NCBI GenBank assembly: GCA_044357345.1
Contig: JBIKPR010000003.1
Coordinates: 23,887 to 87,886 of the forward strand
Origin: Bacteroidia bacterium
Lineage (GTDB): Bacteria; Bacteroidota; Bacteroidia; NS11-12g; UBA955
Direction of reading: 5' to 3'
DNA: 64,000 bases
In this document: positions 4,819 through 41,048 of the stretch, piece by piece
Numbering within the stretch: the stretch's first letter is position 1
Layout of the letters: each line of letters opens with the position of its first letter
The notes under the pieces: generated by a model
Seen by the model: the letters and a program-made list of their open reading frames with translations, nothing else
Told to the model about the DNA's origin: nothing
The model's database searches: none
Translations under genes and position numbers: made by a program

Positions 4819-4821
4819 TAC

Positions 4822-5445
4822 ATGAAGGAAAAAGACAAAGAATGGATAAATCAGCGATATTCAGATAGGATTAAAGGAGAAAATTTTTCCTATGAGGCAT
4901 TGCGTTCTGGTCCATGGGAAAGACGTGAAATGAGATTTCAAATTCTTACAGAAATTGGTATTAAACCTGGTGATTCAGTATTGGATCTTGGTTGCGGATA
5001 TGGTGATCTATATGACTATTTCCAGCGTATTAATTGTCCGGTAGATTATACGGGTTTTGATATTAATCCTGATTTTATTGAAATGGCAAAAAGTAAATAT
5101 CCAGGAGTAAATTTTCAGGTACTTGACGTAATTAACCAAGAATATCCTCATTTTGATTGGGTCATTTCTACAACCTGTTTTAATTTGAAACTTAAAGAAC
5201 AGGACAATTATGAATTTGTTGATGAATTGTTTTCCTCTGTTTATGCTCATGCTAAAAAAGGGGTTGCGATAGATTTCCTTACCAATTATGTTGACTTTGA
5301 AACAGACCATGGGTTTCATTATTCACCGGAAAAAGTTTTTGGTCTCGCCAAAAAATACACAAAATGCGTATCACTTCGACATGATTACCCAATCTTTGAA
5401 TTTTGCATGTATTTATTTCCTGATTTTAAAGGATGGGCGAAATAA
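4822..5445 (+). CDS. Class I SAM-dependent methyltransferase
   Basis: 207 aa. SAM-binding motif I is present as VLDLGCGYGDL. Confidence 0.7.
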   Translation: MKEKDKEWINQRYSDRIKGENFSYEALRSGPWERREMRFQILTEIGIKPGDSVLDLGCGYGDLYDYFQRINCPVDYTGFDINPDFIEMAKSKYPGVNFQVLDVINQEYPHFDWVISTTCFNLKLKEQDNYEFVDELFSSVYAHAKKGVAIDFLTNYVDFETDHGFHYSPEKVFGLAKKYTKCVSLRHDYPIFEFCMYLFPDFKGWAK

Positions 5446-24742: not shown

Positions 24743-26020
24743 ATGAAAATAGGAATATTAGGTTTAGGGTATGTTGGCATAGTAAATGTAGCTTGCTTAT
24801 CAAAACAAGGGTATACTGTTTATTGTACAGATGTAAAAAAACAAAAAGTTATTGCAGTTAAAGAAGGCAAAAGTCCAATTTTAGAACCGCAAGTAGAAGA
24901 ATTGATTCAATCTGGATTGGGGAAAGGACTGATTATTCCAACAGAAGACGTCAAAGAATTAATAGAACAATCAGATATTTTAATTACTTGCGTAGGAACA
25001 CCCAGCAAAATAAGCGGTGAAGTAAACTTAGATTATCTAACCAATGTAGTTATTGAAATCTGTTCATTTCTTAAAGAAGAGGATAAAAAATACCTTGTAT
25101 TTAGAAGTACAGTGCCACCAGGTACAACAGAAATGTTGATAGATAAATATATTTCTAAAAAGTTTCCCAATGTGCAAACTGTTTTTTATCCTGAATTTTT
25201 AAGAGAGGGTACTGCAGTAAAGGATTTTTTCAACTATGGAAGGTTTGTGCTTGGGGCAGAAAAAAGCAAAAACTATGATGAACTAATTGACATAATACAT
25301 TCAGATAAAACTGCGCCTGTTTTTATAACTGATTATAAAACTTCTGAGTATGCAAAATATATAGACAATGGATTCCATGCCCTAAAAGTTGTATGGGCAA
25401 ATGAAATCTTTGGCTTGGGCGCCGAATTGGGTGTTAATGTATATGACTCTCATCAAATATTTGTAGCTGACGATAAATTAAACATCTCTTCAAGGTATTT
25501 AAAACCTGGAACACCATTTGGAGGTTCATGTTTGCCAAAGGATGTAAGAGAATTACAACATTTAAAAACCAAATCAAACAGAAGTTTTAAACTTATTGAA
25601 AGCCTTATTCCAAGTAATGATTCATTTATTGCAGATATCATAGAAAAAATCAAAGCATTCGAAAAACTTAAATTAGGTTTTGTCGGTGTTACATTTAAAA
25701 ACCATTCGGATGATCTTAGAGAAAGTCCTATTTTGAGAATCTTATTGGCATTAAGACAGCAGGAAACTGAATATGAAATAGCGATATTTGATGAGGATAT
25801 TAATTCAGCCAATGTTAGGATTGAATTTCCTTTTTTGTATTCAGGAATAAAAAATTTAGAAGAAGTAATTTTAGAGTCAGAATTGTTGATTGTTTCCAAA
25901 AGATATTTAGAGCAAGTACTGGCTAATAAAAAATCCAATCAAATTATATTTAATTTATCTGATAATAAAACGGCCAGTAATAAAGACTTGATCTACAACC
26001 TATATTGTCCGAATGCATGA
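24743..26020 (+). CDS. Nucleotide-sugar 6-dehydrogenase, AlgD (GDP-mannose dehydrogenase)-like
   Basis: 425 aa. Segments that track P. aeruginosa AlgD as I recall it more closely than Ugd are MKIGILGLGYVGIVNVACLS, GKSPILEP, CVGTPSK, RSTVPPGT, YPEFLREGTAVKD and KLNISSRYLKPGTPFGGSCLPKDVREL. Confidence 0.8.
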   Translation: MKIGILGLGYVGIVNVACLSKQGYTVYCTDVKKQKVIAVKEGKSPILEPQVEELIQSGLGKGLIIPTEDVKELIEQSDILITCVGTPSKISGEVNLDYLTNVVIEICSFLKEEDKKYLVFRSTVPPGTTEMLIDKYISKKFPNVQTVFYPEFLREGTAVKDFFNYGRFVLGAEKSKNYDELIDIIHSDKTAPVFITDYKTSEYAKYIDNGFHALKVVWANEIFGLGAELGVNVYDSHQIFVADDKLNISSRYLKPGTPFGGSCLPKDVRELQHLKTKSNRSFKLIESLIPSNDSFIADIIEKIKAFEKLKLGFVGVTFKNHSDDLRESPILRILLALRQQETEYEIAIFDEDINSANVRIEFPFLYSGIKNLEEVILESELLIVSKRYLEQVLANKKSNQIIFNLSDNKTASNKDLIYNLYCPNA

Positions 26021-27186
26021 CTTTAATCTATGTTTATATAGGAGGAAGTAAAGCTTCAAGTGTTCAACAAAAAGTGGTGAACCAAGTCAAAGAGATGAAT
26101 GCGCATGGTATGAAAGCTATAGGTTGGTTTTTTACACAAGAAGTAGAGGTGGACACTTCTTTTGGAGAATATATAGTGTTAAAACCACTAAAAAATTATT
26201 CAAAAAAATACGAGTTTTTTCAAAAAAACTATGAGGAGCAGTTCCATTATAAACAAATTATAGAGGCGCTTAAGGATGCGAGCTTTGACATTCTGTTTAT
26301 TCGCCATGGTAGTCCAGGAACAGCCTATTTTAAGATGTTAAAACAATGGGCGAATAAAATATATTTATATATTCCTTCAAATTCTATTGCAGAGAACTTT
26401 CAAGAGAGAAAAGCAAACAAATCCAATTCAACTGCATCATGGATTATTGGTTGGTTTCAATACTTTTGGTTCATTTGGTTCATGCATTACAGATTGTTTT
26501 GGTTTGTATTACCTAAACTAAAAGGTGTGGTAGCATTTACACCTGAATTTGCCAAAATGCTTAAGCTTAAAAGCTTGAGTAAGGCAAAAACTATTTACAA
26601 CAGGGATGGCGCAGATTGTCCTAACGTTAAAGTAAGAACTTTTTTACCTATGAATCCTAAGGTTTATTCCTTTGTTTTTTTAAAAGGAAGTTCGATGCAA
26701 CAGCCATGGGCAGGTTTGGAGCGTTTGATTGCCAGTATCAAAGCAAGACCCGATATCCCTTGTCAATTATATATTACGGGAAAAGTATATAATCCTGAGG
26801 ATTTTCAAGAATCTTTTATTCAATTAACCGATCGTTTAGAAGATGATAAATTAGCAGAATTAATTAACGGTGTTGATGTTGGGGTAAGTAATTTGGCAAA
26901 TTACATGATTCAGTTTAATGAAACCACGAACCTTAAAAGCAGAGATTATTATGCGCGAGGACTTCCATTTATTCAAGCCAACACAATGCCAGATATTGAG
27001 GGAACAAAAGGAGCGGATTATTATTTGAACTTACCTAACAACAGTCAGTTAATCGATATGGATAAGGTAGTCTCATTTATTGAAAAAATGCGTAAAAATC
27101 ATAATCATCCAAATGAAATGAGAAATTATGCAGAAGAAAATTTGAGTTGGAATAAAACGGTTGGTGAATTGATAAAAAATATATAA
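26017..27186 (+). CDS. Hypothetical protein, possibly a glycosyltransferase, with a central hydrophobic segment
   Basis: The ATG at 26017 overlaps the upstream stop as ATGA. There is a Trp/Phe-rich hydrophobic stretch, WIIGWFQYFWFIWFMHYRLFWFVL. No diagnostic motif was recognised. Confidence 0.35.
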   Translation: MTLIYVYIGGSKASSVQQKVVNQVKEMNAHGMKAIGWFFTQEVEVDTSFGEYIVLKPLKNYSKKYEFFQKNYEEQFHYKQIIEALKDASFDILFIRHGSPGTAYFKMLKQWANKIYLYIPSNSIAENFQERKANKSNSTASWIIGWFQYFWFIWFMHYRLFWFVLPKLKGVVAFTPEFAKMLKLKSLSKAKTIYNRDGADCPNVKVRTFLPMNPKVYSFVFLKGSSMQQPWAGLERLIASIKARPDIPCQLYITGKVYNPEDFQESFIQLTDRLEDDKLAELINGVDVGVSNLANYMIQFNETTNLKSRDYYARGLPFIQANTMPDIEGTKGADYYLNLPNNSQLIDMDKVVSFIEKMRKNHNHPNEMRNYAEENLSWNKTVGELIKNI

Positions 27187-27188
27187 AT

Positions 27189-28610
27189 ATGATTAAAAAT
27201 AAAGTAAAAAAATTTATTGCGGTTTTTTTATCATTGTCTTCATTGATTGTATTCTTTATAATTTCATTTTTTAGATGGAAATATAATGATGATTATGTTT
27301 TCCCTAAAATGTTAGAAACTCAATCTTTGTTAAATTTTGCAATTGACCATTATATGAATTGGGATGCAAAATTTTTAATGCCATTTGGATTGTTTTGGTT
27401 TGGGATAGTTAAGTATTTAAATTTTGATATTCTAATGCCATTGGCTTCTATTTCTTTTATAGGCATTTCATTTTTAATTGTTAAGATTTTTGAGCAACAG
27501 ACAAATGTTAGTTTTTCAATAATTAATAAAATAATTTTAACGTCAATTGTAAATGGATGCTTGTTTTTACTTATGTATCATACTCATGGCGATTTGCTCT
27601 ATTGGATGTCAGGGAGTGTCTATATACATGGAGAAATGTTCTCCTTGCTTTGGGTCTATCTATTTTACAAAAAGATGTACTCAAAAACAATTTTCTTAGT
27701 TTTCACCTTTTTTGTTAGTACAATTCCACAAAACATCGCATTTGGCTTGTCTTTTTTAATTTTAATTGAAGCAGCAGCACAGCAAAGTAATGAGCTAAAA
27801 AAAAGATATTTATTAATTTTTTCTTTGTTTGTTATTGGAATCTCATTGTCAACTTTTTCACCAGGTTCGTTTAAGCAATTGGCATACATGCAATCAAGTA
27901 GTTATAATAATATCGCGGCAAACAATAATACTGTATTTGATTATATAATTCATTTTTTTAAAATATACATAGAAGCATTAACGCCAAACTATGTCTTATT
28001 TATATTATTAAGTTTGTTTTATATTTTGACTTCCTATATAGTAATAAACATGAGGGTTAAGAAGATTAATTTTATAATGGCTCCATATATTAATAAAAAA
28101 TTTGATAGTAAAAGTTTATTGAATACAGCATTAACTTACAAGTGGTTCTTGGCTTCATTTTTTTCTTTAACTATATATTGGCCTACAATGCTATATGGAA
28201 ATAGGTATTATTTGGGATTTTATATTTTCCTATTTATAGCTTTAGTATTATTTTTAAATAAGCATGTAGAAGCAGAAAAACGCATTAACAACCTTGGCTT
28301 TATTTTAATATTGGGTTTAATTGTCTTCTTTCTTGTAAGATATTCTATTACACTTAAAGAAAGTTTTTTAGTAAATAAATTTATGAAAGATAGAGAGCAA
28401 ATTTTAAGAGAAAACAGAGGTGCTGATGAATTAACCTTAGATGTATTAGATTTTAGTAGTTTTACAAGGTCAATTAGAACCTCAGAAATTTCACATGATT
28501 CTAATTATGTTACAAATTTAAATTATGCAAGTTTCTATAATATAAAAACCATTAAAGCTAGAAATGTTATTACTAAGAATCAATTATTAACATTTCAAAA
28601 TAAAAAATAA
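27189..28610 (+). CDS. Polytopic membrane protein (candidate polymerase or GT-C-like transferase)
   Basis: 473 aa with more than 10 hydrophobic segments. It is the last gene before the IS. Confidence 0.5.
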   Translation: MIKNKVKKFIAVFLSLSSLIVFFIISFFRWKYNDDYVFPKMLETQSLLNFAIDHYMNWDAKFLMPFGLFWFGIVKYLNFDILMPLASISFIGISFLIVKIFEQQTNVSFSIINKIILTSIVNGCLFLLMYHTHGDLLYWMSGSVYIHGEMFSLLWVYLFYKKMYSKTIFLVFTFFVSTIPQNIAFGLSFLILIEAAAQQSNELKKRYLLIFSLFVIGISLSTFSPGSFKQLAYMQSSSYNNIAANNNTVFDYIIHFFKIYIEALTPNYVLFILLSLFYILTSYIVINMRVKKINFIMAPYINKKFDSKSLLNTALTYKWFLASFFSLTIYWPTMLYGNRYYLGFYIFLFIALVLFLNKHVEAEKRINNLGFILILGLIVFFLVRYSITLKESFLVNKFMKDREQILRENRGADELTLDVLDFSSFTRSIRTSEISHDSNYVTNLNYASFYNIKTIKARNVITKNQLLTFQNKK

Positions 28611-28989: not shown

Positions 28990-29808
28990 AGCCTTGTGAC
29001 CGCAGGGAACGGGTTGATTATATTGTATCTGAATACAATTTTAGTCTGTCCAAGGCTTGCAAATTAATGAACCTATCCCGAACAGTGTACAAATATAAAT
29101 CGAAGAGAGATGATAGCCAGGTAGAAGACAGGGTACTTTCTTTGGCGTTAAAGAGGCCAACGGATGGCCAAGATATGATTTACTATAGAATAAGAAACGA
29201 AGGGGTAAAATGGAATTACAAACGCGTTAGAAGAATTTATATGAAGTTGAATTTAAACAAGAAAACTAAAACACGAAAAAGAATACCTGCTAGAGTAAAG
29301 GAGCCATTATTCTGCCCAGAAGAGCCAAACTATGGGTGGTCAATGGACTTCATGCACGATGCTCTGAGCAATGGCAGAAAATTTAGGACTTTGAATGTAA
29401 TTGATGATTACAATAGAGAAGTTCTTGCAATAGGAGCTCACTTAAGTATAGGCTAAAAATTGGTGACTGATGTATTAAACGATATTGAAATTGAAAGAGG
29501 AAAACCAAAAATTATTAGGGTTGATAATGGCCCGGAATTTATATCAAGTATATTAGGGGATTGGTGCTACAAGAGAGATATTAAATTGCAATTTATACAA
29601 CCCGGAAAGCCTACTCAAAATGGCTACGTAGAAAGATTTAACAGAACTTTTAGAAGAGAAATATTAGATGCATACATATTCGATAGCTTGGATCAGGTCA
29701 GATTACTGACTGAAGAATGGATACAAGAATACAACAACGACAGACCTCATGAATCATTGGGAGGAATACCTCCAGCGCTATACAGCAAGCAAAATTCTAA
29801 TTTTAAAA

Positions 29809-29834
29809 GCAGGGAGGCTAGCCTCCCTGCTTTT
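29809..29834 (+). terminator. GC-rich hairpin plus T-run inside the IS right end
   Basis: GCAGGGAGGC-TA-GCCTCCCTGC forms a perfect 10-bp stem, followed by TTTT. It lies within the 3' end of orfB. The relic copy at 19327..19352 has one stem mismatch. Confidence 0.35.
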
Positions 29835-29990
29835 AAAGAACCTTTAATATTGAAGAATTAAATGAGAAACATTATCTTTGAATCCTGTACTAAAAAAGGG
29901 AGGGTTACAGTATCGTTAGTTTAAATTTTGAGCTGATTATTGAATTATTTGGCGAATAATTCCTGTTCAAAAATAGTTTTGAGAACATTA

Positions 29991-30535
29991 ATGCTTAATA
30001 TGACACTTCGCATTAAAAGCATTAAATAAATTAACTATGAATCTTTAGAATATTTTATGGATCTTGATTTACGCATCCAAAAAGATAAAATCATTATTCT
30101 CAAGATGCATTTAAAAATGGTGAAGATTTTGAGGAGTGTTATAAATTTTAAAATCATATGTTTAGAAAGAACGAATTTTAGTTTTGATAAAAATAATTTA
30201 ATAGTAAGAATTATTTCTTTTTAGACTTGTCCTTACCCTTTTTAATCAAATACATGAAAAAAGGCGTATCGAAAATTGCTGTTCGTTTTTCAGAGTTCGA
30301 ACCTTTGGAGTTTGTAATGAATTTTGCAGGGAAGGTGGATTGGGTATGGGTAGATTGTTTCACGGACTTACCATTAAACCCTGAAAATTATAAGATATTG
30401 AAAAAACACTTTAAGTTTTGTTTGGTATCACCTGAGTTGCAGGGATATGATACATCAAAAATAGAAGAGTTTAAAAATAAATTAAAAGACATGCCCATGG
30501 ATGCGGTTTGTACAAAAAGACCTGATTTGTGGTGA
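29991..30535 (+). pseudogene. Multi-lesion pseudogene of a GDPD-like TIM-barrel protein abutting the IS
   Basis: The 3' part is the intact ORF 30227..30535 (KNYFFLDLSLPFLIKY...VDWVWVDCF...CLVSPEL...AVCTKRPDLW). Upstream pieces lie in other frames (YFMDLDLRIQKDKIIIL, then QDAFKNGEDFEECYKF). There is a TAA at 30027..30029 and at least two frameshifts. The family assignment is from memory only. Confidence 0.45.
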
Positions 30536-30612: not shown

Positions 30613-31242
30613 ATGAATCACATCCCTCTATCCAACCTCAAAGCTATTCTCCTAGACCTAGACGATACAATCTATGCCTATCAGCCTTGTCACCAGGCGG
30701 GCTATGAAGCATGTAAGGTTTTAGCAGAAAAGAAATATAGGATTTCCAATTTAGATTTTGATTCAGCATGGAAATCAGGAAGAGATAAAGTTCACCATGA
30801 CTTACATGGTCAAGGTGCTTCTCATTCCCGTTTGCTCTATGCACAAAAAGCAAGTGAAAGCTTGTTTGGTAAAAGCAACCCTGTATTTGCATTAGAGATG
30901 GAAGAAACCTATTGGAGTGTTTTTTTAGAAACCATGGTGTTCAAGCCGGGAGTAGAAGAATTTCTTAAAGAGGCCAAAGTAAAAGGAATTAAAATGTGTA
31001 TCGTAACCGATTTAACCGCTCAAATTCAGATGCAAAAGTGGGTAAAATTGGATTTGGGAAGGTATGTTGATTTCCTAGTGAGCTCGGAGGAATCAGGTAT
31101 TGAAAAACCTGGGAAATATATGTTTGAATTGGCAATGGAGAAGCTTGGCTTGAAAGCCGAAGACTGTATTATGATTGGAGATAGTGAGGAGAAAGATATA
31201 AAGGGAGCGGAGGCTATGGGGATTAAGGGCTATAAAGTTTAA
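30613..31242 (+). CDS. HAD-superfamily hydrolase (phosphatase-like)
   Basis: 209 aa. Motif I is ILLDLDDTIY (DxDxT). Also present are CIVTDL and the motif IV region IMIGDSEEKDIKGA. Confidence 0.8.
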   Translation: MNHIPLSNLKAILLDLDDTIYAYQPCHQAGYEACKVLAEKKYRISNLDFDSAWKSGRDKVHHDLHGQGASHSRLLYAQKASESLFGKSNPVFALEMEETYWSVFLETMVFKPGVEEFLKEAKVKGIKMCIVTDLTAQIQMQKWVKLDLGRYVDFLVSSEESGIEKPGKYMFELAMEKLGLKAEDCIMIGDSEEKDIKGAEAMGIKGYKV

Positions 31243-31313: not shown

Positions 31314-31691
31314 ATGAATGAAAATCAAATTTCAAAAATAGTTTTAGATGTTGCGTTTAAACTTCATACTGAAGTAGGTCCTGGATTATTGGAATCAGCG
31401 TATGAAGCCGCCCTAGCTCATGATTTCATAGAAAATGGATTATTAGTTGAAACACAAGTTCCAGTTCCATTTGTTTATAAAGATGTGAAACTTGAAGTTG
31501 GGTATCGAATGGATATTTTAATAAACAAAATAGTAGTTTTAGAAATCAAGTCAGTTGAACAACTAGCGCCAGTTCATTTTGCTCAAACATTAACTTATCT
31601 GAAGTTGGCAGATAAAAAACTTGGATTGCTGATTAATTTCAACAATAAGCATTTAAAAGACGGTATTCACCGTATCGTAAATAAAATTTAA
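31314..31691 (+). CDS. GxxExxY family protein (PD-(D/E)XK nuclease-like)
   Basis: 125 aa. The signature is GPGLLESAYEAALAHDF (GxxExxY), with a later D...E.K-like core (MDILINKIVVLEIKS). Confidence 0.8.
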   Translation: MNENQISKIVLDVAFKLHTEVGPGLLESAYEAALAHDFIENGLLVETQVPVPFVYKDVKLEVGYRMDILINKIVVLEIKSVEQLAPVHFAQTLTYLKLADKKLGLLINFNNKHLKDGIHRIVNKI

Positions 31692-31740
31692 CCTTCGCGC
31701 CCTTTGCGTAAAAAATCTTTGCGCCCTTTGCGTGAAAGTA
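31692..31740. repeat. Right arm of the same palindromic element
   Basis: The reverse complement of CTTTGCGCCCTTTGCGTGAAA (31717..31737) matches TTTCACGCAAAGGACGCAAAG (31266..31286) at 20 of 21 positions. Confidence 0.8.
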
Positions 31741-31742
31741 TT

Positions 31743-33824
31743 ATGATACAACTTAAAGACAAAAACGGCACCCACAAATTACCTATTTTAAAATCCCGCC
31801 TATTTTGGGCTGGGGTATTGGTAAAGTTTGTACTATCTATTCTGTTTGCTTCTGATTATTTAAGTGAGCTCTTTGCACCATTTGGAAATTATTTTATTTC
31901 CTCTGGGTTTGCAAATCCATATGAATATTTTGCTCAGAATGGATCAGGAACGGAATTTCCTTATCCACCTTTAATGTTGTGGTTGTTTTCAAGTTTTAGA
32001 GCAATTTTTTGGGTGATTTTACCTGGTGGTATTGATGTGTTTTCATTGGCAGATAGCCTCCTTTACAGAATCCCATTGTTTATTGCTGATTTAAGCATCC
32101 TATTTGTATTAATGAGATGGCTAAAAACCAAAACGCGCCAAGTTTTAATTTGGTATTGGCTGTCTCCAGTGTTAATTTATATTAATTATTTTCATGGTCA
32201 ATTGGATGTAATTCCAATGGCATTTTTAATAGGTTCATTGTATTTTCTTTTTAAAAATAAATGGGTGTATTCCTTTTTGATTTTAGGATTTGCAATTACT
32301 TGTAAAACCAACATGGTATTGGTTCTGCCTTTTTTCATAATTTATTTGTGGAGAATTCCTACGATAGATTTCAAAAAAATAATAACGGTTATGTCCATTA
32401 TGTTTTCGACCGTGTTGTTGTTAAATCTACCATATATTAGTTCAGCTGACTACGTCAATATGGTATACAACAATCCTGTGCAACAGCAGGTTTTTGATTT
32501 ATTTTATCAGTTTAATTCAAATCTTAAAATCTATTTTATACCAGCCATTTATTTTGTGTTGGTCTTATGGTATTTCAGTTTCAAATTTGTGAACCGCGAC
32601 CAGCTAATATTATTTTTAGCCTTTACTTTTTTGGCACTCACACTCATGATAGCCCCTATGCAGGGTTGGTATTTTTGGATAATGCCTTTATTGATTTATT
32701 TTGTCATTAAGCATGGTAAAAGAGAGCAATTGGTCTTCGTGATTTTGTCGTTTTTATATTTTATTTATTTCGGATTTATTCAACACTCAGACTACTTTAA
32801 TTCCTATAATTTCGCAACGATAGATTCACCGCTTTTCGTTTATGATGAAACATTATTAAACATTGCTTTTACATTGTTGCAAACCACCTTATTAATTATG
32901 GCTTACCTCTTATTTAAAAATGGTATTAGCAGCAATATTCAGGCTAAATTTTTATCACAACCTTACATGATTGGTATTGGCGGGGATTCAGCTGCTGGTA
33001 AATCTACATTAACTAATGCCTTGGCTTCTGTTTTTGAAATTCAAAATACAACGATAATTCGAGGGGATGATATGCACAAGTGGGAGCGAGGAAATGAAAA
33101 TTGGAAAAAATTTACACATTTAGACCCAAGGGCCAACCATTTGCATCAAGATTTAGACCAAGCTAAAAGTTTAAAAATAGGGCAAACCGTTAAACGGAGT
33201 TTTTACGACCATAACACTGGTAAGTTTACTATCCCTACCTTCTTAAAACCCAACAAATTAATTTTGTTTGAGGGATTACATTCATTTTATCTTCAAAATC
33301 AATTGGATGTTTATGATTTAAAAATCTTTATGCAGCCTCAGGAAGATTTACGGGTGTGGTGGAAAGTGAAAAGAGATGTAGCCAAAAGAGGTTATTCACC
33401 TGAACAAGTTTTGGAGCAATTAAAAACAAGAGAACAAGACTCAGAGAAGTACATTAAAAATCAAGCGCTTCATGCTGACATCGTTGCAAGTTTTTACAGT
33501 GAAAACGAAATTAATCCTGTAGACTTGGAAACTGAACCACAAATTGGACTAAAATTGAGATTTACGAATGGTGTTGGATTAGATCAAATAATAGATAAGT
33601 TAGATCAAATAGATTCATTAAAAGTAGAACATGAGTTTGACAATATTCATCAGTATTTGATATTAAATGGCACTATATCCGAAAACGATATTGAATTAAT
33701 CGCCTACCAATTGATCCCACAATTGGAAGAAATTGGGGTTTATAATCCAAAATGGAAATCTGATTATGAAGGATTGTTGCAATTTTTAACGGTTTATTTT
33801 GTCTTTGAAAAGATGAAAGCATAG
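31743..33824 (+). CDS. Fusion protein: N-terminal polytopic GT-C-like membrane domain plus C-terminal phosphoribulokinase/uridine-kinase-family P-loop kinase
   Basis: The ATG at 31743 is preferred, because the 13 upstream codons in the ORF track are repeat sequence. About 410 aa contain 10 or more hydrophobic segments. From about nt 32960 the kinase motifs are IGIGGDSAAGKSTLTNAL, LFEGLH, DLKIFMQP, WWKVKRDVAKRGYS and REQDSEKYI. Confidence 0.75.
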   Translation: MIQLKDKNGTHKLPILKSRLFWAGVLVKFVLSILFASDYLSELFAPFGNYFISSGFANPYEYFAQNGSGTEFPYPPLMLWLFSSFRAIFWVILPGGIDVFSLADSLLYRIPLFIADLSILFVLMRWLKTKTRQVLIWYWLSPVLIYINYFHGQLDVIPMAFLIGSLYFLFKNKWVYSFLILGFAITCKTNMVLVLPFFIIYLWRIPTIDFKKIITVMSIMFSTVLLLNLPYISSADYVNMVYNNPVQQQVFDLFYQFNSNLKIYFIPAIYFVLVLWYFSFKFVNRDQLILFLAFTFLALTLMIAPMQGWYFWIMPLLIYFVIKHGKREQLVFVILSFLYFIYFGFIQHSDYFNSYNFATIDSPLFVYDETLLNIAFTLLQTTLLIMAYLLFKNGISSNIQAKFLSQPYMIGIGGDSAAGKSTLTNALASVFEIQNTTIIRGDDMHKWERGNENWKKFTHLDPRANHLHQDLDQAKSLKIGQTVKRSFYDHNTGKFTIPTFLKPNKLILFEGLHSFYLQNQLDVYDLKIFMQPQEDLRVWWKVKRDVAKRGYSPEQVLEQLKTREQDSEKYIKNQALHADIVASFYSENEINPVDLETEPQIGLKLRFTNGVGLDQIIDKLDQIDSLKVEHEFDNIHQYLILNGTISENDIELIAYQLIPQLEEIGVYNPKWKSDYEGLLQFLTVYFVFEKMKA

Positions 33825-33973: not shown

Positions 33974-34678
33974 ATGATACAAATTTATGCTCACAGAGGC
34001 AATATGTCTCAGTTCCCTGAAAACACAATGGAAGCTTTCCAAAGTGCAATTAATCTAAGGTGCCCCTGGATAGAGCTAGACATACAACAAACCAAAGATG
34101 GACATTTGGTGGTAACACATGATGAATCTTCAAAAAGAGTGACTGGAGTCAACACGATAATAAGTCAAACAAACTATGAGGAATTAAAGCAATTAAATTT
34201 TGGCAAATATTTTAATAAGAATCAAATGCATGCTCTTCCTTTATTGTCAGAAGTATTTGATAGCATCAATAACACCCAAACTAAAGTTAGCATACAACCC
34301 AAAGCCAACGGATTGATAATACCAGCTATTGAACTAGCAAAACAATGCAGTGTTTTTGAACAAATTGCTTTTAACGATATCAATTGTGAATATCTAATCG
34401 AAGCTAAGTTATATGATAAAAATATTCCTGTTCATTGGGATAGGTTGCCAGGTACGGGATTAGAAACGGATATTTTCATAGCCAAACAATTTGGTTTTGA
34501 AACATTAATGTATTTAAATGAAGCCATAACCTTAGAAAAGGTAAAGCGTGTACAAAATGAAGGAATTAAAATGGGTGCTTGTGTGGTCAATAAAATGGAA
34601 GATTTTAAAAAATATTTGGAATGGGGGATTACCCATTTTTATACGGATTACCCCAAGGAATTTTTAGCAACAATATGA
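33974..34678 (+). CDS. Glycerophosphodiester phosphodiesterase (GDPD) family
   Basis: 234 aa. Motifs are IYAHRGN, PENTMEAFQSA, IELDIQQTKDGHLVVTHDES and the C-terminal HFYTDYP. Confidence 0.8.
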   Translation: MIQIYAHRGNMSQFPENTMEAFQSAINLRCPWIELDIQQTKDGHLVVTHDESSKRVTGVNTIISQTNYEELKQLNFGKYFNKNQMHALPLLSEVFDSINNTQTKVSIQPKANGLIIPAIELAKQCSVFEQIAFNDINCEYLIEAKLYDKNIPVHWDRLPGTGLETDIFIAKQFGFETLMYLNEAITLEKVKRVQNEGIKMGACVVNKMEDFKKYLEWGITHFYTDYPKEFLATI

Positions 34679-35445
34679 AAATAGTAATAGCAATGACAGG
34701 GCAAGGCAGTCGCTTTAAGAAAGCGGGATACGAGACCTATAAAGCCTTAATTCCAATTCATGGAAAGCCTGTAATACAGCATGTAACAGAGTTATTTCCA
34801 GGTGAAACAGATTTTATTTTCATTTGTAGAAATGATATGTTGGAAACTACTGATTTAAAAGAACAATTATTGGGATATGTGCCTACTGCTCAAGTTGTAG
34901 GAATAGATTCTCATAAATTAGGACCGGTATACACAGTATCTAAAATTTATGACTTAATAGGTGATGATGAGCCGGTGATATGCAATTACTGTGATTTTAG
35001 TATGGCTTGGGATTACAGTCATTTTAAAAATCAGATGGAAGAGTCTGGAGTGGATGGTTCTGTTATTTGTTACACTGGATTCCATCCACATTTGTTGCAC
35101 CCTAAAAATCTTTATGCCACATGTTTGGTCGATAAAAATATGAACATGTTAGAAATCACCGAAAAACATGATTATGAAACCGACCGTGAGAAAGGGTATT
35201 ATTCAGGGGGAACTTATTATTTTAAAAAAGGCAAATACATCAAGCAATATTTTGAAGAATTGATGAACAATAAGGTGACCATTTTCGATGAGTATTTTAT
35301 TAGTTTGCCTTATAATTTTATGGTGAGAGATGGTTTAGATGTAAATGTATATGCAGATGTACCACATTTTTGCCAATGGGGCACTCCCGAGGACATGGAA
35401 GAGTATCTTAGTTGGGCAGAAATATTTAAAACAATTAAATCATAA
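34675..35445 (+). CDS. Nucleotidyltransferase-fold protein (sugar/alcohol-phosphate NTP-transferase-like), copy 1
   Basis: The ATG at 34675 overlaps the GDPD stop as ATGA. It has MTGQGSRFKKAGY..K.LIPIHGKP and the C-terminal QWGTPEDMEEY. Confidence 0.65.
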   Translation: MKIVIAMTGQGSRFKKAGYETYKALIPIHGKPVIQHVTELFPGETDFIFICRNDMLETTDLKEQLLGYVPTAQVVGIDSHKLGPVYTVSKIYDLIGDDEPVICNYCDFSMAWDYSHFKNQMEESGVDGSVICYTGFHPHLLHPKNLYATCLVDKNMNMLEITEKHDYETDREKGYYSGGTYYFKKGKYIKQYFEELMNNKVTIFDEYFISLPYNFMVRDGLDVNVYADVPHFCQWGTPEDMEEYLSWAEIFKTIKS

Positions 35446-35471: not shown

Positions 35472-36245
35472 ATGAACAATAAACCTATAAAACTTACCCC
35501 AATGGCCGGTGCTGGAAGCCGTTTTACAGAAAAGGGTTACACGGTGCCTAAACCATTACTTCAAGTGATGGGCTTGCCTATGGTAGTTAGTGCAGCCAAA
35601 GCACTTCCTGGTCCTGATGAAAATATGGTATTTGTGTTAAGAGATTTTCATATTTCAGAATATGGTATTGACAAAACACTTGTGGAGCACTTTCCTGATG
35701 CTAAAATTATTGTGATAGACCAATTGACAGAAGGTCAAGCTAGCACTTGTCTATTGGCAAAAGAATTTATAAATAATGACCAAGAGCTGTTTATAGGAGC
35801 AAGTGACAATGGAATGCTTTATGACCATGCTAAATTTGAGCAGGCCAAAAAGGAAGCAGATGCCCTTGTATTTACCTTCAGAAACAATCCAACTGTATTA
35901 CCAAAACCAGCTGCTTACGGATGGGTGGAAGTAGAAGAAGATGATTCTACTATCATCGAAGCAAAAGTAAAGTTTGACATGCCCGACCCACTTCGCAAAC
36001 ACGCTTATGTTGGCGCTTTTTGGTTCAAAACGGGAAAACTTTTTGTAGAAGCGGCAGAGCGCATGATCGCACAAAACCGCAGAATTAATAATGAATTTTA
36101 TGTAGATGAGTGCATTAATGATGTGATTCAATTGGGTTATAATGCCAAAGTGTTTGAAGTAGACCATTACATTTGTTGGGGAACTCCGAACGATTATAAA
36201 ACCTTCCAATATTGGGAAGCGTATTACAATAAAGTAAAACCATAA
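35472..36245 (+). CDS. Nucleotidyltransferase-fold protein, copy 2 (paralogue of 34675..35445)
   Basis: 257 aa. It has PMAGAGSRFTEKGYTVPKPLLQVMGLPM and the C-terminal CWGTPNDYKTF. The architecture is the same as copy 1. Confidence 0.65.
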   Translation: MNNKPIKLTPMAGAGSRFTEKGYTVPKPLLQVMGLPMVVSAAKALPGPDENMVFVLRDFHISEYGIDKTLVEHFPDAKIIVIDQLTEGQASTCLLAKEFINNDQELFIGASDNGMLYDHAKFEQAKKEADALVFTFRNNPTVLPKPAAYGWVEVEEDDSTIIEAKVKFDMPDPLRKHAYVGAFWFKTGKLFVEAAERMIAQNRRINNEFYVDECINDVIQLGYNAKVFEVDHYICWGTPNDYKTFQYWEAYYNKVKP

Positions 36246-36354: not shown

Positions 36355-37098
36355 ATGTTATCCATTATCCTCCCATGCTATAACGAACAAGACAACTTAG
36401 AATTCTTGTTCAATTCCCTTGACCTTGTGGCTGCTGCTCACCAGGACTTAGAGATTATATTGGTTAATAACGGTTCAACAGATAATTCATTAGCTGTATT
36501 TGAACAAGAAATAACCAAACGCAACTCTGCCAAATTTAAAGTGGTAACAGTAGAAAAAAACATAGGCTATGGTTATGGCATACTCACTGGTTTAAGAGCC
36601 GCTAAGGGCGATATTCTATCAGTTACCCATGCTGACCGTCAAACTGATCCTATGGATGTCCTTAAGGCTCTTGGTTTATTTCATAAAAACTTACATTCAG
36701 AAACATCAGAAGGGAGTCTGCTTGTTAAAGGCTATCGAAAGAACCGCAGACCAATGGAAGCTTTCTTTTCTTGGGGAATGGGTTTCTTGTCTAGCATAGC
36801 GTTAGGCACAAGACTTACAGAAATTAACGCCCAACCCAAATTATTTAGTAAGTCCTTTTTTGACAATATAGAGAAAGATGCTCCCCATGATTTTTCCTTA
36901 GATTTATATTTTCTATACCATGCAAAAAAGCAAGGACGAATTATTGATTTTCCAGTGTATTTTGCCAAGCGTGTAGCAGGTGAAGCAAAAGGCGGAAGTG
37001 GAAGCAGTTGGAAGGTCCGTTGGAAATTAATGAAACGGATTTTTAAGTATATTTTCGAATTAAGAAACAAAATGAAAATTTCACGCAAAGCCCGCTAA
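36355..37098 (+). CDS. GT2 glycosyltransferase, Dpm1/polyprenyl-phosphate-sugar synthase-like, no TM tail
   Basis: The ATG at 36355 is preferred, because the upstream 10 codons in the ORF track are repeat sequence. Motifs are LSIILPCYNEQDN, LVNNGSTDNS and THADRQTDP. The last 6 codons and the stop are supplied by the downstream repeat. Confidence 0.8.
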   Translation: MLSIILPCYNEQDNLEFLFNSLDLVAAAHQDLEIILVNNGSTDNSLAVFEQEITKRNSAKFKVVTVEKNIGYGYGILTGLRAAKGDILSVTHADRQTDPMDVLKALGLFHKNLHSETSEGSLLVKGYRKNRRPMEAFFSWGMGFLSSIALGTRLTEINAQPKLFSKSFFDNIEKDAPHDFSLDLYFLYHAKKQGRIIDFPVYFAKRVAGEAKGGSGSSWKVRWKLMKRIFKYIFELRNKMKISRKAR

Positions 37099-37190: not shown

Positions 37191-38747
37191 ATGAAGAAAT
37201 TCATCTTAAACCACCCCATAGAAATACTCTTTAGTACTCTCTTTCTAACTCTAGCAGCTATCCTCAACTTGCAGTTTCTTGAGGGATCTAATGTAAATTT
37301 TACATTTTCTGGACACGATGAATACCTAACGGTTAGAGAAGTATATTCCATATTACAACCCTTGTCATTGAAGCATTTTATAATGGCTATAATCTCAGGT
37401 GATGTATTGTATTATGGAAGAATTGTTTTTTATGTGGATGCTTTGCTTGCGTTTATACCTTACAAAATTTGGGGCATAGATGGTATGGTATATGCCATAA
37501 GAATGACCCATGTTATTGAACTTTTACTTGGGATTTTGTTATTGAATAATTTCATAAAAACCAATGTCGGTAAGTTGTTTTTTGCCTTTAATGTTCTCAT
37601 ATTATATTATACAGCCTATTTTGTAATGGTTCCTAAGCCAGAGCCTTTACAGCTTTTGCTTTTAGCCATTTTTCTAATTAAAGCGCATAAAGTTAACTGG
37701 CAATTTGGTTGGCATTTTATTTGGTTAGGAATGGCTTACGGAGTTAAGTTTAATGTATTAACTGCACTTCCTTTGTTGTTTATTTTGCCTTACCTTGTTG
37801 GTTACAAGAAATTAGGTGGATTTATAAAGTCATTATTTGCATTTCTAGCAGGAATAATTGTTGCTATCCCATGTTTAATACTTACACCATTAAAACCAAT
37901 ATTTCTTCAAACCTATATAAAAAGAACTTTTGGAAACGCTTCGCATTATGATGATACTGGTGTATCATTCAAGACTTGGATAGAAAATGGATGGTTGGGG
38001 GCTTATAGCGGTGGTTTGTTGCTAGGTTTGGTATTGCTTTTTGTAATTTCTTGGATCTGTTATTTAGGGATTAAAAACTACCTAAAAATCCGCAAAGTTG
38101 AAAATAGTTTTATCTTAATATTGTTAGGATTAGTTCTTTTGTTGCCTGTTATTTTATTTACTGAAAGACTATGGCCTCATTATTTATGGACAGGCCACGT
38201 ATTTTTATTGTTAGGAATTGCTGTCTTAGCCAATCAAAATCTTAATCTTAAGTATATATTTGTTTTATTGTATTTATTAATGACAATAGGTGGAATAAGA
38301 TCCATTGTAAAACAAGGGAAGGATCTTTTTTTCTTGGAAAGTAAGGCAAAAGAATTAATTCTAAATTCAAAACGTGCCCACGCATTCATAAAAAAACAAA
38401 GAGACACCCTTGTTTCTATTCAAGATATATCTGTTTATTATCCATTTACGGAGATGCTTAAAATTAATAGATACCATCCTTTTTCAGGTAAAAAGCCAGT
38501 CAAACTTGAAAAAGAAAAATTCATGTGGGATAATTTAATGGATTATTCTATGATCAAAGACGAAAAAACAGATTATTTATTGCTTAATAGGTTTAGTTTT
38601 TTAGATATGGATGTTGATTATAGCACAACTAAGGATTCAATTATTTTAAAAAATAAAATAAAACTAAGAGAACAGTATGGTAAAACTATTTTTTTGGATA
38701 CAACATTTGGTTCGATTAATGTATATAGAATAGAAAGTGTCAAATAG
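37191..38747 (+). CDS. GT-C-like polytopic membrane glycosyltransferase (ArnT/PMT-like) with a C-terminal soluble domain
   Basis: The ATG at 37191 is preferred. About 12 hydrophobic segments are followed by a hydrophilic tail of about 140 aa. It lies directly downstream of a Dpm1-like GT2. Confidence 0.6.
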   Translation: MKKFILNHPIEILFSTLFLTLAAILNLQFLEGSNVNFTFSGHDEYLTVREVYSILQPLSLKHFIMAIISGDVLYYGRIVFYVDALLAFIPYKIWGIDGMVYAIRMTHVIELLLGILLLNNFIKTNVGKLFFAFNVLILYYTAYFVMVPKPEPLQLLLLAIFLIKAHKVNWQFGWHFIWLGMAYGVKFNVLTALPLLFILPYLVGYKKLGGFIKSLFAFLAGIIVAIPCLILTPLKPIFLQTYIKRTFGNASHYDDTGVSFKTWIENGWLGAYSGGLLLGLVLLFVISWICYLGIKNYLKIRKVENSFILILLGLVLLLPVILFTERLWPHYLWTGHVFLLLGIAVLANQNLNLKYIFVLLYLLMTIGGIRSIVKQGKDLFFLESKAKELILNSKRAHAFIKKQRDTLVSIQDISVYYPFTEMLKINRYHPFSGKKPVKLEKEKFMWDNLMDYSMIKDEKTDYLLLNRFSFLDMDVDYSTTKDSIILKNKIKLREQYGKTIFLDTTFGSINVYRIESVK

Positions 38748-39948
38748 TTCTAAAACCTGCTATTTATTTACCCAATCCTATCCATATGGCGATGGAGAAG
38801 TTTTTATTGAGCAAGAAATTCCCTTTTTAGCGAAGTATTTTCAAAAAGTAGTCGTGTTTCCAATGGATAATGAACGGGAATTGAGAGAACTTCCGAATAA
38901 TGTCGAAGTGAAGTCTATTTTCAACAATATGCTTGAAGAATATAGCCCAAAAAAAGTCTTGCTACAAAATTTCATTCCTTTTTGTAAGGTTATGTTAAAA
39001 GAGCTTTATTCAAATCCACTTTTAACAATTTTAAACATTAAAAATCTTTCTACTGGATTATTACAGAATTTCTATCGAGCAAGTATACTAAGAAAAGAAA
39101 TTGACAACGATAACAACAACGAAACAGTGTTTTACTCTTATTGGTTTGATGCTTGGGCAATAATTCTAGGGATATTAAAAAATCAAAATAGAATCAATCA
39201 ATTTGTGTCAAGAGCACATGCGTTTGATATTTATGAAGAAGACAACGTAAATGGAATAATACCGTTTCGAACATTTCAACTTAGACAAGTGAACCGAGTT
39301 TTTGCTGTTTCTAACCACGGCAAAGACTATTTGAGACACAAATATAAAAATTACGCAGATAAAATTGAAAAGGCTTGGCTTGGTAAAGCATTGAATGAGG
39401 AGGTAAATCCTTTCTCTAAATCTTTGACAATTGTATCGTGTGGAAGTGTTCAAAATAGAAAACGAATAGTGGAAATTCCTGAGATATTGAGGCATTTAAA
39501 TATTGATTTCAAATGGGTTCACTTCGGCGATGGGGATGAAATGAGTACGCTTAAAGAAAAGATTAAGGATTGTAAATTGGAAGATAAAGTGGAATTGAAA
39601 GGACATGTCACAAATTCAGATTTCACCCTATATTTGAAGACTGAACCTGTTTCCTTTTTTTTAAGTGTAAGTAGAAATGAAGGCTTGCCATTTACTATGA
39701 TTGAATCTTTAAGTTATGGTATACCTATTATTGCAACCGATGCAATGGGGTGCAGAGATATTATCAATGAACAAACCGGAATCCTACTTCCTGTATTTTT
39801 TCAACCCACTACGGTGGCTAAACAAATAGAAGAATTTGCTTTTTCAGCTAAAAATACGGATGTATTTCGTTCAGGTGTAAAAGCTTTTTGGAAACAGAAC
39901 TTTGAGGCAGAAAAAAACTATTTCGAATTTTATAAATTAATAAATTAA
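38737..39948 (+). CDS. Glycosyltransferase family 4 (paralogue of 11223..12425)
   Basis: 403 aa with a GTG start. The N-terminus CYLFTQSYPYGDGEVFIEQEIPFLAKYFQKVVVFP parallels VFLFTDKFPFKGGEPFLETEIHYLSQAFDKVIIYP. The C-terminal region is RNEGLPFTMIESLSYGIPIIATDAMGCRDII. Confidence 0.8.
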   Translation: MSNSSKTCYLFTQSYPYGDGEVFIEQEIPFLAKYFQKVVVFPMDNERELRELPNNVEVKSIFNNMLEEYSPKKVLLQNFIPFCKVMLKELYSNPLLTILNIKNLSTGLLQNFYRASILRKEIDNDNNNETVFYSYWFDAWAIILGILKNQNRINQFVSRAHAFDIYEEDNVNGIIPFRTFQLRQVNRVFAVSNHGKDYLRHKYKNYADKIEKAWLGKALNEEVNPFSKSLTIVSCGSVQNRKRIVEIPEILRHLNIDFKWVHFGDGDEMSTLKEKIKDCKLEDKVELKGHVTNSDFTLYLKTEPVSFFLSVSRNEGLPFTMIESLSYGIPIIATDAMGCRDIINEQTGILLPVFFQPTTVAKQIEEFAFSAKNTDVFRSGVKAFWKQNFEAEKNYFEFYKLIN

Positions 39949-39959: not shown

Positions 39960-41045
39960 ATGAGTGTAAATTCTAACAACAATTCAAAGCATGTTCTGTA
40001 CTATAATTTTGGTAAAGGATCTATTCAGCATTTACCAGAATTAGTAAAGGATATGCAAGGGTTTAAACTTTTTATTGTAGATCATTATTTTCAAAAGCAT
40101 GAACTAATTGGAAAATTGCCGATTAAAAGCGATGATATACTTTACTTTTTAGATACTACTTACGAACCTAAAACTTCAAAAATTGACGATTTGCTCTCAA
40201 GCTTTCTTTCTCAAAAGAATGGAGAGAAGCCAATTGTAATAATTGGAATAGGTGGAGGTTCTACCTTAGATACAGCCAAAGCCATTGCAAATTTGTATAC
40301 AAATCCGGGAAAGGCAGAGGATTATCAAGGCTGGGATTTAGTTAAAAATCAAGCCATTTATAAAATTGGTATTCCAACAATTTCGGGTACTGGAGCTGAG
40401 TCAAGCAGAACATGTGTTATGACAAATGCCAAATCAGGTCTAAAGTTGGGCATGAACAGCGATTTTACGATTTATGATCAACTTATTTTAGATCCTGATT
40501 TAAGTAGTTCTGTGCCTAGTGAACAGTATTTCTTCACTGGAATGGATACCTATATTCATTGTATTGAGTCATTAGCTGGTTCTCATAGAAATGCAATTGG
40601 TGATGCTTTTTCGCGTGAAGCATTGAATTTGTGTAGAGAAGTATTTTTGTCAGATGATATGATGTCAGATGAAAACCGCGGAAAATTGATGGTCGCTTCA
40701 TACCTCGGAGGTGTAGCTATAGCCAATAGTTATGTCGGTGTTGTGCATCCACTTTCTGCAGGTTTAAGTGTGGTTTTTGGAACCCACCACTGTGTTGCAA
40801 ATTGTATTATTTTAAATGTACTACAAGAATTTTATCCAACAGAATATTTAGAATTTCAGCAAATGCTCAAAAAGCAAAATATTCAGGTTCCTAAATTAGA
40901 TGGGGTTAATTTTTCAGAAGAGGAATTAAACAGATTATATGCTTCAAGTATTATACACGAGAAACCTTTGTCAAATGCTTTGGGAAAAGATTTTAAATCA
41001 ATTTTGTCAATAGAAAAAGTTAGTAAAATATTTAAAAATAGTTAG
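39960..41045 (+). CDS. Group III iron-containing alcohol dehydrogenase / dehydroquinate-synthase-like oxidoreductase (KdnB-like candidate)
   Basis: 361 aa. Motifs are IIGIGGGSTLDTAKAIA, PTISGTGAESSR and His-rich metal-site segments (MDTYIHCIES, VVHPLSAGL..GTHH). Confidence 0.7.
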   Translation: MSVNSNNNSKHVLYYNFGKGSIQHLPELVKDMQGFKLFIVDHYFQKHELIGKLPIKSDDILYFLDTTYEPKTSKIDDLLSSFLSQKNGEKPIVIIGIGGGSTLDTAKAIANLYTNPGKAEDYQGWDLVKNQAIYKIGIPTISGTGAESSRTCVMTNAKSGLKLGMNSDFTIYDQLILDPDLSSSVPSEQYFFTGMDTYIHCIESLAGSHRNAIGDAFSREALNLCREVFLSDDMMSDENRGKLMVASYLGGVAIANSYVGVVHPLSAGLSVVFGTHHCVANCIILNVLQEFYPTEYLEFQQMLKKQNIQVPKLDGVNFSEEELNRLYASSIIHEKPLSNALGKDFKSILSIEKVSKIFKNS

Positions 41046-41048
41046 ATT

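Follow-up and report, generated by a model that had tools for sequence, protein, structure and literature searches.

The fusion gene and its surroundings

The DNA analysed here (the window) is a stretch of 64,000 nucleotides from a Bacteroidia bacterium (GenBank assembly GCA_044357345.1, contig JBIKPR010000003.1, positions 23,887 to 87,886 of the forward strand), and all positions given below are those of the window. At 31743..33824 its forward strand carries an uninterrupted reading frame of 693 amino acids plus a stop codon, the product of which joins an N-terminal polytopic membrane domain, predicted to have the GT-C glycosyltransferase fold, to a C-terminal phosphoribulokinase (PRK). This fusion gene and the set of genes that accompanies it in many bacteria, here called the module, are the subject of this report. 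The longest open reading frame (ORF) begins with a TTG codon at 31704; alignments with homologues begin at the ATG at 31743. The gene stands in a co-directional row that consists of fragments of an IS3 element, a truncated GDPD-like gene, a HAD phosphatase gene, a PD-(D/E)XK gene, the fusion, a GDPD gene, two nucleotidyltransferase genes (NT1 and NT2), a GT2 glycosyltransferase gene, a gene for a membrane protein of about 520 amino acids (U52x) and a GT1 glycosyltransferase gene.

Reality and distribution of the fusion

A search of 5.8 billion proteins with the fusion as query gave 974 matches, and the best 120 of these are almost all full-length fusions; they include more than 100 full-length proteins of about 700 amino acids from independent assemblies that are 43–98% identical to the query. 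With the membrane domain alone as query, 1.8 billion representative proteins gave 897 matches, 233 of them below 1e-30, and the best 150 of the 897 are again nearly all fused proteins, 670–720 amino acids long. In a scan that took a single genome from each species, at least 161 species genomes encode the fusion, and hundreds of contigs from independent metagenome projects carry it as well. It is present in the isolates Eudoraea adriatica DSM 19308, Zeaxanthinibacter enoshimensis DSM 18435 and Geojedonia litorea and in the complete genome of Aurantibacillus circumpalustris, and its known distribution covers Bacteroidota, Patescibacteria, Rickettsiales and Melainabacteria, so that a survey first proposed for Bacteroidota reaches far outside that phylum. 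Its relatives are labelled "hypothetical", "DUF2029 domain-containing" or "uridine kinase/Gpi18-like mannosyltransferase" in the databases. The organism names on several records of metagenome-assembled genomes (MAGs) look implausible, and taxonomy is best drawn from the isolates and, for the rest, from broad phylum assignments only; such names include "Rickettsia typhi" (loci L034 and L063 of the comparison below), "Chitinophaga pinensis" (L004) and "uncultured Rhizobium sp." (L039, L059 and L065).

The original prediction, made from the sequence of the window, had described one unbroken frame of 694 codons, which is what is found, and had pointed to the need to exclude that two separate genes were joined by an assembly or sequencing error. 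The same unbroken architecture occurs in all of the above genomes and contigs, finished isolate genomes included, and the linker region between the two domains aligns among homologues without frame changes. Because the comparative data show the same fusion in independent assemblies, an artefact is refuted, and we regard the chance of merged genes as negligible. The two-domain protein, from its sequence an inner-membrane enzyme, is genuine and widespread in bacteria.

The kinase domain

The predicted cytoplasmic PRK domain (amino acids 406–693, 32958..33821 on the forward strand) is separated from the membrane domain by a flexible linker of about ten residues, and the AlphaFold model of the full-length fusion has a pLDDT of 88.4. 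Pfam PRK (PF00485) matches amino acids 409–590 with E=7e-37 and 127.6 bits, far above the cutoff of 22, and spans model positions 1–195 of 196. Every motif that the original prediction had quoted is present in the translation: IGIGGDSAAGKSTLT (amino acids 409–423), LFEGLH (508–513), DLKIF (525–529), WWKVKRDVAKRGYS (539–552) and REQDSEKYI (563–571). The P-loop, G411–T422, is encoded at 32973–33008, the putative catalytic aspartate D442 (33066–33068) lies within GDDMH, the putative catalytic histidine H490 (33210–33212) lies within YDH, and a C-terminal beta-sheet domain makes up about amino acids 580–693.

The kinase belongs with phosphoribulokinases in particular. Its top NCBIfam family is the PRK subfamily model NF005655 (211.1 bits, positions 5–208 of 326 matched; the score is below the curated cutoff, a point taken up below), and it misses both NCBIfam Udk equivalog cutoffs by a wide margin (78.1 bits against 180, and 74.6 bits against 220.3). 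The best solved relatives are the "cyanobacteria-specific PRK" structures 9qko, 9qkp and 9qkn (E=2e-46, about 50% identity over the aligned core), followed by classical cyanobacterial, plant and archaeal PRKs, and then by uridine kinases at about 1e-13, roughly 1e33-fold weaker. Foldseek aligns the kinase model with the same three structures (302–310 residues) over about 309 columns with target-normalised TM-scores of 0.76–0.81, a match that extends over the entire PRK fold and takes in the C-terminal sheet of the dimer interface. The P-loop, DDxH, Y(N/D)H and KxxRDxxxRG motifs are common to the kinase and 9qko, and the P-loop core GGDSAAGKST (amino acids 413–422), D442, H490 and KxxRDxxxRG are invariant in 61 homologues. 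By motif alignment with 9qko, D442 and H490 correspond to the catalytic dyad Asp57/His105 of the plant-type PRK of Chlamydomonas (PMC9978339). The kinase half thus looks, from its sequence, like an active PRK, which would act on ribulose 5-phosphate. The earlier assignment to the PRK/uridine-kinase family with intact catalytic residues is upheld and can be narrowed to PRK. A uridine kinase identity was considered and rejected, given 211 bits for the PRK subfamily against 78 bits for Udk and the far better matches to solved PRKs.

The membrane domain

When the full-length model was submitted to Foldseek only kinase matches were returned, and the membrane domain (amino acids 1–405, 31743..32957, forward strand) was therefore modelled separately, giving an AlphaFold model with pLDDT 90 and pTM 0.90. 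In this model it has 12 transmembrane (TM) helices and both termini in the cytoplasm. The top Foldseek match in the PDB is glycosylphosphatidylinositol (GPI) mannosyltransferase I with bound dolichol-phosphate mannose (9wno, E=1.6e-5, TM-score 0.66); this enzyme, ALG3, ALG6, PIG-U, ArnT and PimE are all matched with probability 1.00, and weaker matches include STT3, ALG9 and EmbB. The modelled structure thereby shows the membrane domain to have a GT-C fold. Sequence relationships are far more distant: a profile search of PDB sequences gave only a marginal match to GPI mannosyltransferase 1 (E=0.11), the window protein matches GT87/DUF2029 (PF09594) with E=0.027 and 14.7 bits, below the cutoff of 25, the distant homologue P0152 is barely above that cutoff with 26.5 bits, and some homologues have weak Pfam matches to the GT-C families GT87, MptA_B and Alg6_Alg8. 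Of the likeness to GT-C and DUF2029 transferases that had been noted before, the GT-C part is therefore borne out, with 12 helices in the model, and membership in the Pfam DUF2029 family is not.

The 12-TM model obeys the positive-inside rule, with lysine and arginine making up 9 of 48 loop residues inside and 4 of 139 outside, and this topology places the kinase in the cytoplasm, which answers the question of its side that the original prediction had left for a topology model. A 13-TM topology was rejected, since it shows no charge bias and the ATP-dependent kinase would end up outside the cell. Amino acids 76–107 cannot hold two full membrane spans, because the segment 89–101 is deleted in Flavobacteriaceae.

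Among 39 diverse homologues the residues R109, D116, H151, Q153, D155, K188 and D350 are invariant or nearly so, and the motifs FPYP (amino acids 72–75) and PMQGWY(F)W (305–312) are conserved. Of the acidic residues, D116 and D155 are invariant and D350 is nearly so. In the model R109, H151, Q153, D155, K188 and D350 lie in or adjoin non-cytoplasmic loops, and D116 lies inside a membrane helix. Such a residue pattern suggests an active site or binding site.

Genes that accompany the fusion in the window

The HAD phosphatase gene (30613..31242, forward strand) encodes a protein that is closest to haloarchaeal ribulose-1,5-bisphosphate 5-phosphatase (NCBIfam NF053830, E=2.8e-56, 190.8 bits, which is under the equivalog cutoff; the next family scores 109 bits). 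NF053830 is also the best family for all 29 module HAD proteins that were checked. On sequence grounds the protein is a relative of that phosphatase and not a demonstrated orthologue of it.

Downstream of the fusion, 33974..34678 (forward strand) encodes a GDPD-family phosphodiesterase of 234 amino acids (Pfam GDPD, E=2.5e-28) without a signal peptide. It is followed on the same strand by NT1 (34675..35445, 256 amino acids, Pfam NTP_transf_3; the longest ORF starts at 34621) and NT2 (35472..36245, 257 amino acids, Pfam NTP_transferase), which are paralogous (about 24% identity, E=1e-23). Profile searches of the PDB matched NT1 to 4evw, GlmU, glucose-1-phosphate cytidylyltransferase and an HddC-like protein, and NT2 to 4evw, an HddC-like protein, RmlA and GlmU. 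We note that both keep the GxGSRF signature and both look catalytically competent, unlike a pair made up of an active and a degenerate subunit.

The GT2 glycosyltransferase (36355..37098, forward strand, Pfam Glycos_transf_2) resembles DPM1, GtrB and ArnC; its best PDB matches, which indicate homology only, are dolichol-phosphate mannose synthase 5mlz (E=8e-13), the GtrB protein 5ekp (sll0501) and ArnC. The next gene (37191..38747, forward strand) encodes U52x, or U528, the membrane protein of about 520 amino acids. It has neither a Pfam match nor a PDB sequence match, and only profile-profile comparison linked it to the N-terminal domain of the fusion (hhalign probability 94%, E=9e-8), of which it appears to be a distant paralogue. 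It has an invariant aspartate, D43, in a GHDEY motif just after TM1. The GT1-family glycosyltransferase gene (38737..39948, forward strand, Pfam Glycos_transf_1) follows the module in many Bacteroidota loci, recurring downstream of U52x in about 15 loci, and its product may be a builder of the acceptor.

Upstream, the remnant of a small GDPD-like gene (U192; 30098..30532, forward strand) directly follows the IS3 fragments. In a tblastn comparison it corresponds to amino acids 39–192 of the Aurantibacillus U192 protein with 67% identity, and so it lacks the N-terminal 38 residues, which include the catalytic HR.N motif. In alignments the U192/U202 family shows the motif H-R-x-N...E-x-D-x-R...H-D, the catalytic pattern of GDPD and PI-PLC enzymes. 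A U192 profile had only marginal PDB matches (WbbM, E=0.008; a GDPD, E=0.41), and its match to the 234-amino-acid GDPD of the window is weak (hhalign E=9e-4, probability 23%); we call the family GDPD-like because of the catalytic motif pattern and this weak match.

Two adjacent ORFs at 29067..29861 contain IS3-type transposase fragments (HTH_21/rve, then rve_3) and represent a split, frameshifted or decayed copy. Between the HAD gene and the fusion lies a gene of the PD-(D/E)XK nuclease superfamily (31314..31691, 125 amino acids, PDDEXK_3); this slot is free of genes in related loci, and the Aurantibacillus locus has a similar gene at another place (L001, 319..609). A direct repeat of gcgccctttgcgt lies within the 50 bases that precede the ATG of the fusion (31690..31740). 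Upstream of the insertion element and after a UDP-glucose dehydrogenase gene are genes for a protein of 393 amino acids with no family match (26005..27186) and for a DUF6056 polytopic membrane protein of 473 amino acids (27189..28610). A weak DUF6056 match in one U52x member suggests that DUF6056 may represent a further GT-C-like family of this polysaccharide locus. After the GT1 gene, 39960..42227 contains a gene of the Fe-dependent alcohol dehydrogenase family and one for a DegT-type aminotransferase; they are not conserved with the module elsewhere and are probably part of the host polysaccharide locus.

Conservation of the module

We compared 82 related loci, using proteins of the window and of the loci as queries. 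Many of these loci are cut by contig ends, and component counts refer to the 45 that have at least 6 kb on both sides of the fusion. The HAD phosphatase is present in 37 of the 45, the nucleotidyltransferases in 42 and the GT2 in 41; some GDPD-like gene is found in 40. A class II aldolase-family protein is encoded in 41 loci, and the 234-amino-acid GDPD in the remaining four, so that every locus has one or the other. The profile of the module aldolase matches FucA and 3m4r, and its invariant histidine and glutamate residues are consistent with the zinc site of the family. The idea that the 234-amino-acid GDPD is a plain substitute for U192 was rejected; the window keeps a U192 remnant, and the locus counts put the GDPD in the aldolase slot. 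Of 83 related loci, 21 carry a separate GtrA gene, which in several cases immediately precedes the fusion. In general, then, the module consists of a small GDPD-like gene, a HAD gene, sometimes GtrA, the fusion, an aldolase or 234-amino-acid GDPD gene, two nucleotidyltransferase genes, a GT2 gene and often a gene for a second GT-C paralogue.

Gene fusions in different lineages jointly connect the components of the module into one chain. GtrA is fused to the N-terminus of the GT-C::PRK protein in P0148, P0152 and P0248 (about 835 amino acids), and the aldolase to its C-terminus in five patescibacterial loci (L064, L066, L072, L073 and L079; about 1058 amino acids). An aldolase::GDPD-like protein of 554 amino acids is encoded at 4646..6307 of locus L076, NT1::NT2 proteins of about 549 amino acids occur in L038, L047, L062 and other loci (Flavobacteriaceae), and NT2::GT2 proteins of about 500–534 amino acids in the alphaproteobacterial loci L034, L039, L059 and L065. 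In one MAG the module stands alone, with no larger polysaccharide locus around it. The module is conserved and horizontally mobile, and the fusion is its signature component. This gene order, conserved across the 82 loci, and the fusions support the suggestion in the original prediction that a sugar phosphate is channelled from the kinase to the nucleotidyltransferases.

We note that a TylF-like O-methyltransferase gene (about 237 amino acids) lies inside the module in 17 loci, including L003, L037–L040, L049, L053, L054, L056, L058, L064, L066, L067, L072, L073 and L076, a hint that those lineages transfer an O-methylated sugar.

The comparison bears on what each half of the fusion may do. 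An earlier proposal was that the fusion adds phosphate to lipid-linked or nascent glycans at the membrane, and the position of the kinase beside a glycan-handling domain would suit such a role. Glycan-modifying kinases do exist, among them WbdD, WaaP and KdkA. The kinase of the fusion, however, is a complete PRK that has the catalytic and core motifs of soluble PRKs and about 50% core identity to solved ones, the topology model puts it on the cytoplasmic side and has the conserved GT-C loops pointing outward, and its conserved neighbours, a HAD phosphatase and a ketose-1-phosphate aldolase-like protein, are those expected to process ribulose 1,5-bisphosphate. All of this speaks against phosphorylation of a glycan, to which we give a very small chance.

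The membrane domain, in turn, might be non-catalytic, an anchor, scaffold or lipid-substrate binder that tethers or regulates the PRK while U52x or another enzyme performs the transfer. Catalytic bases of GT-C enzymes are usually in the first outside loop. In the fusion this loop (amino acids 35–109) has no position that is at least 80% aspartate or glutamate among the 39 diverse homologues, and the paralogue U52x does have an invariant aspartate just after TM1. PIG-U, which is among the Foldseek matches, is a GT-C-fold protein that serves as a non-catalytic partner in GPI transamidase. On the other hand, U52x was detected in only 25 of the 45 loci and the fused domain is in all of them, the invariant polar residues of the domain (H151, Q153, D155, K188, D350, D116 and R109) are kept across phyla down to about 37% identity, and its closest structural matches are active enzymes with polyprenyl-phosphate sugars as donors. 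We therefore consider a non-catalytic membrane domain unlikely, with a modest chance of being right.

A proposed pathway from ribulose 5-phosphate to a surface glycan

We propose, with a probability of roughly 0.55, that the module is a self-contained system for making a sugar donor, linking it to a lipid, flipping it and transferring it, which leads from ribulose 5-phosphate through a lipid-linked sugar to a cell-surface glycan. Domain identities, the charge bias of the topology, gene order and fusions are direct observations, and from them we infer the substrates, the sequence of reactions and the nature of the sugar. The PRK domain would convert ribulose 5-phosphate to ribulose 1,5-bisphosphate, and the HAD phosphatase would take off the 5-phosphate to give ribulose 1-phosphate, which, unlike ribulose 5-phosphate, can form a furanose ring. 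The GDPD-like phosphodiesterase, NT1 and NT2 and, in most lineages, the FucA-like class II aldolase-family enzyme would turn ribulose 1-phosphate into a nucleoside diphosphate (NDP)-sugar. The DPM1/GtrB-like GT2 would then move the sugar onto polyprenyl phosphate, GtrA (separate or fused, in other lineages) would flip the lipid-linked sugar, and the GT-C domain, possibly with its paralogue U52x, would transfer it to the cell-surface glycan. That the GT-C domain uses a polyprenyl-phosphate sugar donor is suggested by the co-encoded GT2 and GtrA. In such a pathway the first committed enzyme is fused to the last, and this probably couples precursor supply to the transferase, through co-localisation or through PRK-type dimerisation. 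The proposed route is supported by analogy, because the logic of kinase, HAD phosphatase and nucleotidyltransferase mirrors that of heptose activation (see below).

The same first enzymes could instead form a shunt in which ribulose 5-phosphate yields dihydroxyacetone phosphate (DHAP) and glycolaldehyde via ribulose 1,5-bisphosphate and ribulose 1-phosphate, so that PRK, HAD phosphatase and aldolase supply a C2 or C3 unit for a substituent (glycolaldehyde, a glycolyl group, an ethanolamine precursor or glycerol phosphate) and the pentose skeleton is not incorporated. In the haloarchaeal non-carboxylating pentose bisphosphate pathway a phosphatase makes ribulose 1-phosphate and a FucA-type class II aldolase cleaves it (Sato et al. 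2022, PMC9700705), and the HAD protein and FucA-like aldolase of the module are the same consecutive pair. The aldolase is moreover fused to the PRK in Patescibacteria, and a true GDPD, an enzyme that releases glycerol 3-phosphate and an alcohol, replaces it in the window. Against this, the aldolase-less variants, the window included, keep PRK and HAD intact, so ribulose 1-phosphate must have a fate besides aldol cleavage and would be used uncleaved; an abundant metabolite such as DHAP needs no route of its own; and the module encodes a pair of sugar-1-phosphate nucleotidyltransferases together with a relative of polyprenyl-phosphate sugar synthases, and NT2 is fused to GT2 in some loci, both of which point to a sugar donor. 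We find a shunt of this kind, whichever unit it might supply, distinctly improbable.

Several findings weigh against the donor pathway proposed above. The kinase, at 211.1 bits, misses the curated NF005655 cutoff of 236, and the HAD protein, at 190.8 bits, misses the NF053830 equivalog cutoff of 330, so that the substrates of both are extrapolated. The first outside loop of the membrane domain lacks a conserved acidic residue, and the non-catalytic PIG-U is among its structural matches, as described. No GtrA homologue was found in the window by tblastn. In about eight loci (L027–L030, L042, L044, L051 and L061) a 677-amino-acid fusion is adjoined only by a class II aldolase gene and has unrelated genes around it, which in L030 are genes for peptidases and CreD, an integrase gene and a transposase gene; the rest of the module may be elsewhere in these genomes or may be missing. 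Lastly, the phosphate of ribulose 1-phosphate is on a non-anomeric carbon, and an NDP-ribulose made from it directly would be no GT2 donor without further chemistry.

One scheme that would provide such chemistry, and would employ every enzyme class present in the module, is a "phosphate walk" in which NT1, the GDPD-like enzyme (by way of a 1,2-cyclic phosphate) and NT2 shift the activating group to the anomeric C2. The resulting NDP-pentulofuranose, with ribulose, or a xylulose-type sugar if the aldolase-family enzyme is an epimerase, would then be attached to the lipid, flipped across the membrane and passed on by the GT-C domain. In these particulars the scheme is speculative and we rate it as rather improbable.

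Implications

PRK is regarded as a marker of the Calvin cycle, and ribulose 1,5-bisphosphate as a metabolite with hardly any user besides RuBisCO. The fusion of a PRK to a glycosyltransferase fold of the cell envelope in heterotrophs, in episymbiotic Patescibacteria and in intracellular Rickettsiales suggests that ribulose 1,5-bisphosphate also serves in the biosynthesis of surface glycans. If the proposed pathway is correct, it is a new route to a sugar donor and possibly a missing route to ketopentose residues, matches to "PRK" in metagenomes are no automatic sign of autotrophy, and the fusion is a rare single polypeptide that joins the first, cytoplasmic enzyme of a pathway to its last, extracytoplasmic one. 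Full-text literature searches that combined PRK with Bacteroidetes, membrane, glycosyltransferase, DUF2029 and candidate phyla radiation (CPR) found no description of the fusion or the module, in agreement with the earlier statement that no characterised case of a PRK/Udk-family kinase tethered to a glycan-transferase-like membrane domain was known; a paper on RuBisCO in CPR bacteria has free PRKs only. Several bacterial glycans contain ketopentofuranose residues (PMC8707391), and a literature search on the biosynthesis of xylulose in Campylobacter turned up no known pathway; the module is a candidate origin of bacterial ketopentofuranose residues, though one of low probability. Organisms with known glycans that contain xylulose are E. 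coli O95 and O97, Y. enterocolitica O:10, C. jejuni RM1221 and Devosia submarina. Cultivable carriers exist in Eudoraea adriatica, Zeaxanthinibacter enoshimensis and Aurantibacillus circumpalustris, which makes the idea directly testable.

Comparison with known systems

The fusion itself is uncharacterised, and the module combines components of known kinds, a periplasmic glycosylation system of the Gtr/Arn type and a PRK. The kinase has the whole fold and the catalytic motifs of the cyanobacterial and plant-type PRKs (9qko, 9qkp and 9qkn); it differs from them in being placed behind a 405-residue membrane domain, in a glycan-synthesis module with no adjoining Calvin-cycle or RuBisCO genes. The neighbourhood of one free "cyanobacteria-specific PRK" gene that was examined, in Stanieria, contains no related module.

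The membrane domain shares its polytopic fold (TM-score at most 0.66), a long first outside loop with short helices and the aromatic-proline motif (FPYP) with GT-C enzymes that use polyprenyl-phosphate sugars, such as PIG-M, ALG3, ALG6, ArnT and PimE/GT87. By sequence, however, the domain is outside all of their families, and its first loop has no invariant acidic residue. ArnT and PglB have a periplasmic C-terminal domain in the place where the fusion has a cytoplasmic kinase.

Like the three-component Gtr system (GtrA, GtrB and GtrC) and the ArnC/ArnT pair, the module includes a GT2 relative and a polytopic protein with outward loops (as modelled). A GtrA gene adjoins the fusion gene, or is fused to it, in other lineages and was not found in the window. 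Unlike the Gtr and Arn systems, the module has a precursor pathway of its own, made up of PRK, HAD phosphatase, aldolase or GDPD and two nucleotidyltransferases, and its transferase would be fused to the first enzyme of that pathway.

With the haloarchaeal pathway the module shares a HAD protein closest to the phosphatase of that pathway and a co-encoded FucA-like aldolase. The ribulose 1,5-bisphosphate would come from a PRK here and comes from ribose-1,5-bisphosphate isomerase there, and the context is biosynthetic here (nucleotidyltransferases, GT2 and GT-C) and catabolic there; in some module variants, including that of the window, the aldolase is dispensable.

A parallel in logic is the route to GDP- and ADP-heptose, in which a kinase (HddA or HldE) phosphorylates C1 of a sugar that has a terminal phosphate, the HAD phosphatase GmhB removes the terminal phosphate and a nucleotidyltransferase (HddC or HldE) activates the sugar, and HddC-like proteins are among the PDB matches of NT1 and NT2. 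The kinase of the heptose route is of the GHMP or ribokinase-like type and that of the module is a P-loop PRK, and the module would act on a ketopentose with a non-anomeric C1, using two nucleotidyltransferases plus a phosphodiesterase.

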